Virus record (IMG/VR): IMGVR_UViG_2778261543_000002
DNA from: a virus
Taxonomy: Duplodnaviria; Heunggongvirae; Uroviricota; Caudoviricetes
Direction: 5' to 3' (one strand)
Length of the DNA stretch: 4,063 nt
Part shown: in pieces, positions 1,992 through 2,813 of the stretch
Layout: each line of letters starts with the position of its first letter
Numbering within the stretch: position 1 is the first letter of the stretch
Notes under the pieces: model-generated
Seen by the model: the letters and a program-made list of their open reading frames with translations, nothing else
Database searches by the model: none
Told to the model about the DNA's origin: nothing
Position numbers and translations under genes: made by a program

Positions 1992-2813
1992 TCATCGTAA
2001 AATATCCTCCACACCTACCAACCCGTTCTGCTTCAGATATTCCATCGCCTTATCAGGCAAGCTGCTTAAACTATTGGCGTACTTTAAGGAGTGAGCCAGA
2101 CGCTTAACCCACATTGTTAATTCGCTAACCTGGTTACCTGGCACTGGCGACGCTACTGTCTGTTCCAGAACGTCATCAGGTACTACCGGCTCTACTGCCA
2201 ACTGACTGGCATATTTGTTAATGGTAACGATAAGCTCTTGCTCGGCCTCATCCAGACAATCACCAACACCTCGCCTGTCACCGTCAAAATCATCGAAATC
2301 GGCACGAATCCTGGCAACCTTCAGGATTGCGGACAACACCTCACTAGGAATTGCCGGATAGTTGGTTGACGTTTCCGCGATTTCCCGAAAATTATTGGTT
2401 GACGAATTCTTGTTTTCCCGAAAGTTTCCGGACTGAAGCATGGCGGCGCGGCAGGCGTTCCATATTTCGGCAGCAATATCGCGCTCGCTATCGGTTAATT
2501 TGTACGTGGAAACATAGCCAGAGAGCATTTCTACGTTTTCCGGAGTTGCTTCTTCCGGCACTACCGGCGCTGGCGGGGCGATGCGTCCAAGCAACTTATT
2601 TACCTCTTTCGCCATCGCGTCATATTTATCTAAATGGCGATTAGCTTCTAAGCAGACTCGGCGCATCTGATCTGAGTTAACTCGTTTAACTGGATCTGCT
2701 TCCAGCGATGCCAGCGCAATCCGTGCCAGTTCCATTTGTTCACCACGGGTAAGCCCGTTTTCAAGCGGATTTTTAATGAACAATTCAATACGTTCTTTGG
2801 TAATAGTGGTCAT
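1992..2813 (-). CDS. hypothetical acidic phage protein (273 aa) with internal repeats
   Basis: Track ORF 1992..2813. ATG 2813..2811 preceded by AGGAG with a 6 nt spacer; that SD overlaps the TAA stop of the upstream 87 aa gene (TAAGGAG). Contains an 11 aa tandem repeat (FRENKNSSTNN / FREIAETSTNY) and two PVVP[ED][ED]-type segments. No family recognised. Confidence 0.8.
   Translation of the reverse strand: MTTITKERIELFIKNPLENGLTRGEQMELARIALASLEADPVKRVNSDQMRRVCLEANRHLDKYDAMAKEVNKLLGRIAPPAPVVPEEATPENVEMLSGYVSTYKLTDSERDIAAEIWNACRAAMLQSGNFRENKNSSTNNFREIAETSTNYPAIPSEVLSAILKVARIRADFDDFDGDRRGVGDCLDEAEQELIVTINKYASQLAVEPVVPDDVLEQTVASPVPGNQVSELTMWVKRLAHSLKYANSLSSLPDKAMEYLKQNGLVGVEDILR
2361..2427. repeat. 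imperfect ~33 bp tandem direct repeat inside the 273 aa CDS
   Basis: Unit 1 (2361-2394) gttggttgacg-tttccgcga-tttcccgaaa-atta; unit 2 (2395-2427) ttggttgacg-aattcttgt-tttcccgaaa-gttt. The 10 bp blocks TTGGTTGACG and TTTCCCGAAA are each repeated exactly; GTTTCCG also recurs at 2372-2378 and 2424-2430. Confidence 0.6.

Follow-up and report, generated by a model that had tools for sequence, protein, structure and literature searches.

The direct repeats in the middle of the 273-aa coding sequence very probably belong to the protein and not to the replication of the phage: they are best explained as an in-frame 33-bp coding tandem duplication, which gives rise to a two-copy inter-module linker of 11-residue units in an Eaa-type mosaic accessory protein. 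The original prediction had left two readings side by side, a plain protein repeat or linker expansion and a set of DNA-level binding sites, and had titled the repeats iteron-like. The first reading stands. The repeat always occurs in frame, lies between predicted helices, varies in 33-nt steps and is conserved as a peptide motif. The second reading is not supported, and neither is the title. Only two copies are present, there is neither an AT-rich region nor a DnaA box, the gene is of the Eaa type, the same sequence is found in unrelated replicons, and its synonymous divergence is that of its flank.

In the window, i. e. the whole stretch of 4,063 nucleotides that was analysed, the 10-mer TTGGTTGACG occurs at positions 2362-2371 and 2395-2404 and the 10-mer TTTCCCGAAA at positions 2381-2390 and 2414-2423. 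The members of each pair had been placed about 33 bp apart; the spacing is exactly 33 bp for both. GTTTCCG, which had also been seen twice, is found at 2371-2377 and 2424-2430. With its spacing of 53 this pair is out of register with the 33-nt unit, and it is no separate feature. A repeat search of the window returned a 32-nt direct repeat (2362-2393 and 2395-2426) with 78% identity at a spacing of 33. This is the top ungapped 32-nt self-match of the window, with 25 of 32 positions identical (offsets 12-60), whereas in 500 dinucleotide-preserving shuffles the best match averaged 19.7, had a maximum of 24 and did not once reach 25. Tandem Repeats Finder (minimum score 30) reported no repeat, because two diverged copies fall under its threshold; its silence is thus no evidence against the repeat. 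The 33-base tandem duplication is real.

The repeat is in frame inside an ORF on the minus strand, and its period of 33 nt corresponds to 11 codons. Copy a (2394-2426, minus strand) reads AAC TTT CGG GAA AAC AAG AAT TCG TCA ACC AAT and encodes NFRENKNSSTN, residues 130-140 of the protein. Copy b (2361-2393, minus strand) reads AAT TTT CGG GAA ATC GCG GAA ACG TCA ACC AAC and encodes NFREIAETSTN, residues 141-151. The claim that the DNA repeat encodes a tandem protein repeat of 11 residues is therefore correct.

The host gene was located by ORF call and homology at positions 1992-2813 (stop codon included) on the minus strand and encodes an acidic mosaic prophage protein of the Eaa type with 273 residues. 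Its calculated pI of 4.89 bears out the acidity that had been pointed out before. A search for the family of the protein, which had been proposed as a check, led to P22 EaA and to homologues named Eaa and revealed no replication-protein signature. Residues 1-56 are 73% identical to P22 EaA (tblastn). Its closest matches in the databases, which have 82-100% of the query length in common with it, go by the names 'Eaa protein' or 'DUF551 domain-containing protein'; three homologues named 'Eaa protein' (P0111, P0117 and P0118) have an identity of 70-72%, with 100% of the length covered. Most close homologues carry DUF551 (PF04448) at the C-terminus, whereas Pfam found no match to DUF551 in the 273-aa protein and returned only a sub-threshold match to DUF1843. 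NCBIfam, PADLOC and PDB sequence searches with the protein gave no informative match. Judged by its homology to the named EaA and Eaa proteins, the protein is filed here as Eaa-type and not as a DUF551 protein.

The PHROG matches of the 273-aa protein are piecewise and belong to 11 families, all of unknown function; phrog_14306 covers residues 116-241 and phrog_660/924 cover residues 220-273. Such piecewise matching to 11 families is the signature of a mosaic protein. The N-terminal part (residues 1-117, 2463-2813, minus strand) was delimited by Megablast break points and is itself mosaic, the break points being at query positions 589, 697 and 741; it ends in a helix that leads into a WNACRAAML motif. 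It is followed by the conserved linker cassette (residues 118-156, 2346-2462, minus strand), which was delimited by BLAST break points and consists of WNACRAAMLQSG, two units of NFRExxxxSTN, and YPAIP. According to the PHROG matches, the remainder (residues 157-273, 1995-2345, minus strand) is made up of C-terminal modules, beginning with SEVLSAILKVARIRADFDDFDGD… and ending with a C-terminal piece that is common to other PHROGs.

Every gene of the window is on the minus strand. In the direction of transcription, a zinc-ribbon protein, a 70-aa ORF, DUF4014 and an 87-aa ORF precede the 273-aa gene, and a hairpin, hokD with the sok RNA, a 70-aa ORF, DUF1367 and the start of DUF1364 follow it. E. 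coli prophages match the window. The gene order of a related prophage is immunity region, YdaT, a replication protein of the YdaU family, a DnaC-like ATPase, DUF1627, DUF977, the small ORFs of the window and then the homologue of the 273-aa gene, which is degraded there to pseudogene fragments. Behind the homologue come hokD, DUF1367, DUF1364, DUF1133 and the lysis genes.

The linker cassette is shared by genes that otherwise have little in common. Translation of homologous loci yields the form …(G)WNACRAAML(Q/H/N)(S/A/G)G – NFRExxxSSTN – NFRExxE(T/A)ST(N/S) – (Y/S)Px(I/T)P. As …WNACRAAMLQSG-(NFRExxxxSTN)x2-xPxxP the cassette is present in P7 Upf89.5, ev017, phi191, SEN22 EaA and Stx1/Stx2 phages, and its flanks differ on both sides. 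Between lambdoid prophages and phage-plasmids of the P1/P7 type it is 99% identical. It was found in 1256 of 5426 complete E. coli genomes (about 23%), at a median of 2 and at up to 8 places per genome.

Recurrent homology break points bracket the repeat, in Megablast at window positions 2347/2364 and 2451/2462. When homology was walked outward from the junction between the copies in 87 unique contexts, ungapped homology to the window ended at 2430-2459 in 54 of them and at 2355-2369 in 42. Counted over 81 unique contexts, the cassette connects at least 31 upstream module classes with at least 13 downstream ones, in 41 combinations. Among the downstream classes are the SEVLSAILKVARIRADFDDFDGD type, to which the window belongs, a ALLPGGFTIEEAKELHE type, several subtypes of DUF551 that begin with DGWISCSERMP, and two zinc-finger types. 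The upstream module of the window was seen with four downstream classes, its downstream module with at least 13 upstream classes. A frame-agnostic search of IMG/VR for the 21-mer at the copy junction gave at least 120 matches and, together with loci fetched earlier, 127 instances; in 126 of these (among the matches listed) open sequence extends to both sides in the same reading frame. The repeat thus forms the centre of a conserved island that has exchangeable modules on either side. When the alleles of copy a were compared with the upstream module and those of copy b with the downstream module, adjusted mutual information hardly varied (0.34-0.50) and was uninformative on the placement of crossovers.

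A comparison of copy number among homologues had been proposed with the original prediction. The number does vary, between one, two and three copies, but two copies are the norm and strongly predominate. The two-copy pattern is present in 117 of the 120 closest proteins. Of the three exceptions, P0046 (YFRE…) and P0115 (NFRKN…) have a substituted first copy, and the third has an extra single copy elsewhere. P0070 combines a two-copy linker and a paralogous one-copy linker within one gene. At the DNA level, two copies were found in 126 of the 127 instances with the junction 21-mer (among the matches listed), and the IMG/VR contigs comprised at least 120 two-copy, four one-copy and one three-copy alleles. 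Among 150 representatives of clusters at 50% identity, about 120 had two copies, 8 had one copy, and about 22 had the flanking module only. A search of genome contigs with the whole protein hit only three short MAG contigs, which are likely mis-binned, and was of no use for this comparison.

All copy-number variants, with one, two or three units, differ by exact steps of 33 nt. In the three-copy allele two of the units are identical in DNA. The four one-copy alleles from IMG/VR are precise as well: they consist of copy a alone or of an a/b hybrid that is joined in the TTTCGGGAA block. Whole-unit variants of this kind are to be expected from replication slippage, or from unequal crossing-over between the copies, where a tandem repeat is part of a coding sequence. 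Since all steps are multiples of 3, they do not switch the gene on and off.

An AlphaFold2 model was calculated from an alignment of 26 sequences and is poor overall (mean pLDDT 47.5, pTM 0.33). It predicts helices at residues 6-14, 23-39, 47-76, 108-127 and 157-174, with low-confidence coils between them. Residues 128-153, which include the repeat, were modelled as coil with pLDDT below 50 between the helices 108-127 and 157-174, in a model that is of low confidence as a whole. The linker is strongly hydrophilic (GRAVY -1.26). Both the low-confidence coil and the hydrophilicity fit a segment that may be a disordered or flexible linker, but the structural evidence is weak.

Conservation follows the peptide. 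In an unbiased set of proteins, R3, S8, S9, T10, N11, N12, R14, E18, T19, S20 and T21 of the repeat are more than 90% conserved, whereas positions 6, 7 and 17 are free, and F and C alternate at positions 2 and 13. In the DNA, nonsynonymous variant types per site amount to 0.51 in motif codons versus 1.38 in x codons (p=0.0007), a contrast that is partly censored, since 9 of the 17 motif codons had their amino acid prescribed by the search pattern, but with which the unbiased protein set agrees. Synonymous variant types per site do not differ significantly (0.60 in motif versus 1.12 in x codons, p=0.36). The codons TTT CGG GAA and TCG TCA ACC are nearly invariant in 40-54 unique DNA versions, including their synonymous sites. 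This could hint at a constraint on the nucleotides, although the counts are small and the differences not significant; recent common ancestry or gene conversion would explain it equally well. An apparent freezing of the synonymous sites in motif codons did not hold up either after per-site normalisation, with the p value of 0.36 given above, or against the flanking module.

For the latter comparison, 28 unique sequences having the downstream module of the window were used. Among codons for the same amino acid, the fraction of synonymous differences was 0.034 for the repeat, compared with 0.040 for the 50 codons of the module next to it. The flanking synonymous divergence took the place of a test that had been suggested earlier, namely whether homologues keep the amino acids but not the nucleotides of the repeat, which has little power at a DNA identity of at least about 85%. 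The repeat thus appears to evolve like ordinary coding sequence under constraint at the peptide level, with the power of this comparison limited because all known copies are closely related, at no less than that identity.

From these observations the following picture can be drawn. An old in-frame tandem duplication of 33 bp, inside an Eaa-type gene of a lambdoid prophage, would have given rise to two polar peptides of 11 residues each with the consensus N-[F/C]-R-E-x-x-x-S-S/T-T-N. Preceded by …WNACRAAMLQSG and followed by xPxxP, the repeats would form with these a flexible linker between modules. The segment may act as a flexible spacer, possibly with a short linear motif [N]-[F/C]-R-E-x3-S-S/T-T-N. 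At the same time the cassette would represent a short homology shared by N-side and C-side modules that are otherwise unrelated (from EaA, DUF551-containing and related proteins), with the mosaic break points at its edges. The cassette is often the sole homology between different genes of the family and would hence be the site where homologous recombination yields viable in-frame chimeras. Homologous recombination inside the cassette, of the Rad52 type or by RecA, may therefore reassort the modules.

A further interpretation, which is compatible with a protein linker, is that the cassette is kept partly as a joint for module swaps. The translated cassette would then be a dedicated intragenic recombination joint, and the conservation of its nucleotides would itself be selected, with TCGTCAACCAAYAATTTTCGGGAA kept uniform across lambdoid, P22-like and P1-like phages so that modules can be shuffled in frame. 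The clustering of homology break points at the cassette edges and the 41 module combinations across at least 31 upstream and 13 downstream classes are in line with this. So are the 24-nt junction block TCGTCAACCAAYAATTTTCGGGAA, which is almost invariant, and the hybrid one-copy alleles, which are joined within blocks of identity. Moreover, Rad52-like phage recombinases recombine short and diverged homologies, and relaxed homologous recombination drives the mosaicism of lambdoid phages (PMC3945230). However, any surviving in-frame recombinant would break at the ends of a conserved island, and selection for recombinogenicity is not demonstrated thereby. The synonymous divergence of the repeat is no lower than that of the adjacent module, and such second-order selection is difficult to maintain. 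We regard a selected recombination joint as unlikely.

Much less probable still is that the repeats are DNA-level binding sites for another protein and that their coding function is secondary. Candidates would be a TTTCCCGAAA operator pair or an antisense promoter. TTTCCCGAAA is a near-palindrome whose outer four-base arms are complementary, and its repetition at 33 bp would put both copies on the same helical face. A weak sigma-70-like match (TTGACG-18-AATTAT, 9/12) lies on the plus strand at 2366-2395, and some synonymous positions are nearly invariant, as described above. Yet promoter-like matches are at chance level (2 found versus 1.5±1.1 in shuffles), and the window contains no other copies of the motifs. 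The proposed sites are often altered by nonsynonymous changes such as TTT to TGT and GAA to AAA or GGA, while synonymous divergence is the same as in the flanking module. The uniform context, with one reading frame, open ORFs and module junctions in 126 of the 127 instances (among the matches listed), likewise speaks against this reading. As for RNA, folding of the repeat region gave no structure (z = +1.54, less stable than shuffles), and Rfam has no family there.

It is highly improbable that the repeats are the iterons of an intragenic origin like that in lambda O, to which an initiator would bind in order to unwind a nearby AT-rich region. Lambdoid origins are indeed situated inside the initiator gene, and here two direct repeats are spaced by 33 bp, about three helical turns. 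But lambda-type and plasmid origins typically have at least four near-identical iterons of about 17-22 bp each, whereas the window has just two units of 33 nt that are 78% identical; further copies of either 10-mer were not found in the window, even with one mismatch allowed. The prediction had already remarked on the missing AT-rich unwinding region, and had named DnaA boxes or an AT-rich block within about 100 bp as something to look for. Neither was found: the DnaA box TTWTNCACA has 0 matches across the window, and no AT-rich block exists within 100 bp, the GC content being 0.40-0.55 in 60-nt windows over 2290-2500.

The location of the repeat does not fit an origin either. The host gene is Eaa-type and has no replication-protein signature, and in the related prophage the replication module (YdaU-family protein and DnaC-like ATPase) lies about 3 kb upstream of the homologue. 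Placed some 3 kb behind that module, the 273-aa gene is not the initiator. Origin iterons have to match their own initiator and co-vary with it. The cassette, in contrast, is found at different genome positions in P7, which has a P1-type replicon, in the P22-like SEN22, where it belongs to the early region and is close to int, and in Stx phages, where it lies 3-6 kb from the left end. Its presence in replicons with unrelated initiators is incompatible with origin function. Extra conservation of synonymous sites, finally, is missing. Every defining feature of an iteron origin that was examined is lacking here.

That the two copies resemble each other by chance, with no common origin, can practically be dismissed: one exact pair of 10-mers within 60 nt is common enough by itself (102 of 500 shuffles), but here both 10-mers share one register and offset within a match of 25/32 that none of the 500 shuffles attained, hundreds of homologues keep the two-unit structure, and there are variants that differ in copy number by exact units.

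The duplicated linker peptide is thus an ordinary kind of feature and not a set of iterons. With this a false lead, an origin or iterons inside the gene, is removed, and the feature is correctly annotated as a linker peptide that is duplicated within a mosaic protein of the Eaa type. The cassette is a clean and countable example of domain shuffling at a defined intragenic joint. As a natural test bed it could help to show how short homologies drive phage mosaicism, and it could mark module boundaries in poorly annotated accessory proteins of prophages. None of the literature that was searched describes the NFRE…STN linker.

The nearest relatives of the 273-aa protein are the EaA/Eaa and DUF551-containing mosaic proteins of lambdoid, P22-like and P1-like phages, for instance P22 EaA, SEN22 EaA and P7 Upf89.5, which like it are modular, acidic and rich in helices, and two of which (SEN22 EaA and P7 Upf89.5) have the identical cassette. 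It differs from EaA and DUF551 proteins in that DUF551 is missing and the C-terminal part is of the SEVLSAILKVARIRADFDDFDGD… type with a tail of 50 residues. The position of the gene is different, too. Instead of belonging to an ea region close to int, it is located between the replication module and hokD with the DUF1367 and DUF1364 genes, which precede the late-gene regulator. A similar mosaic accessory architecture with portable domains is known from lambda Ea22 and ead-Ea22-like proteins. Ea22 proteins are accessory proteins of the early region that have their N-terminus in common, a centre that forms a coiled coil, and C-terminal domains that are interchangeable and mostly acidic, with DUF551 in one Stx variant (PMC10834534). 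The Ead_Ea22 signature was not found in the 273-aa protein. That study does not describe the NFRE…STN linker, and the words 'linker' and 'repeat' are absent from its text (PMC10834534).

With iteron origins (lambda ori in gene O, P1 oriR, plasmid iterons) the repeat has in common that direct repeats lie within a lambdoid coding sequence. Copy number, unit length, the AT-rich element, which is missing here, the host gene and a distribution that is independent of the replicon all set it apart. There is a parallel to linker repeats between protein domains and to the idea of linker sequences: a short, hydrophilic, low-confidence segment lies between modules, the copy number changes by whole units, and mosaic boundaries coincide with it. 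In the modular theory of phage evolution, which is associated with Susskind and Botstein (1978), 'linker sequences' were reportedly proposed between genes. If the cassette were indeed a recombination joint, it would be a within-gene version of these, and the duplication would double the target for crossovers. In contrast to the classic linker sequences, however, the cassette lies inside a gene and is translated, and any causal role of it in recombination is putative.

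The motif (G)WNACRAAML(Q/H/N)(G/S), which lies at 2433-2462 (-) in the window, recurs as the terminus of many unrelated N-side modules; among the homologous loci compared it was found in L003, L005-L008 and L011-L013. In some proteins the motif is followed by the NFRE…STN linker, in others directly by a stop codon, and alternative linkers (QGSQPVSQTYK…, QGAEPVSQPY… and QGVEQPQN…GNSPAIPDDW) also occur at this place. The motif seems to be a general signature for the 'end of module' in the Eaa/DUF551-type mosaic protein family.

The only three-copy allele of the NFRE…STN unit that was found is located at 5989-6372 of locus L016 (IMG/VR UViG_2609459833_000005). 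A TAG stop codon is present just upstream of it, and the first unit carries a 1-nt deletion; therefore the upstream module is severed from the three-copy repeat. An ORF in an alternative frame runs into the repeat and DUF551, and the gene is probably decaying or re-initiated. In the closest relative over the full window, E. coli CE0021a (L004), the homologue of the 273-aa gene (11352-11816) consists, by its annotation, of two pseudogene fragments, one of a DUF551 protein and one of a hypothetical protein, both partial. Where the window has DUF4014 and the 70-aa ORF, this strain carries ORFs of the XF1762 family and others instead.

Fragments of the enterobacterial-phage family to which the 273-aa protein belongs are also encoded, for example as …SERDIAAEIWNACRAAMLHGKGE*, on Segatella copri and Collinsella MAG contigs of 1.8-3.3 kb (L001-L003). 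Their presence in Bacteroidota and Actinomycetota MAGs most likely reflects mis-binning and not the true host range.

A strong, GC-rich 13-bp hairpin at 1875-1907, flanked on both sides by A-runs and T-runs, has the shape of a bidirectional terminator. It is positioned about 85 bp downstream of the stop codon of the 273-aa gene and upstream of a hok/sok locus (1382-1706, -), a complete type I toxin-antitoxin system. The HokD-type toxin ORF (51 aa, ATG at 1537, -; Pfam HOK_GEF, 1.2e-23) overlaps with the match to the sok antitoxin RNA at 1532-1706 (110.7 bits; gathering score 59). Between hokD and the 70-aa ORF (894-1106) lies a very AT-rich intergenic stretch (1100-1270). No other block of the window is markedly AT-rich, and the distance from this stretch to the NFRE…STN repeat exceeds 1 kb.

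The 273-aa gene (1992-2813) finds its best DNA matches on plasmids from E. coli that are about 87-97 kb long, with 97-98% identity over about 80% of the gene length. Judged by their size and the match to phage P7, these are probably P1/P7-type phage-plasmids. In upf89.5 of P7 (L005, 89164-90696) the linker cassette is present at 99.2% identity. These plasmid and P7 matches imply a recent exchange of DNA between lambdoid prophages and P1-type elements. De Paepe et al. 2014 reported that these two groups had not exchanged DNA recently.
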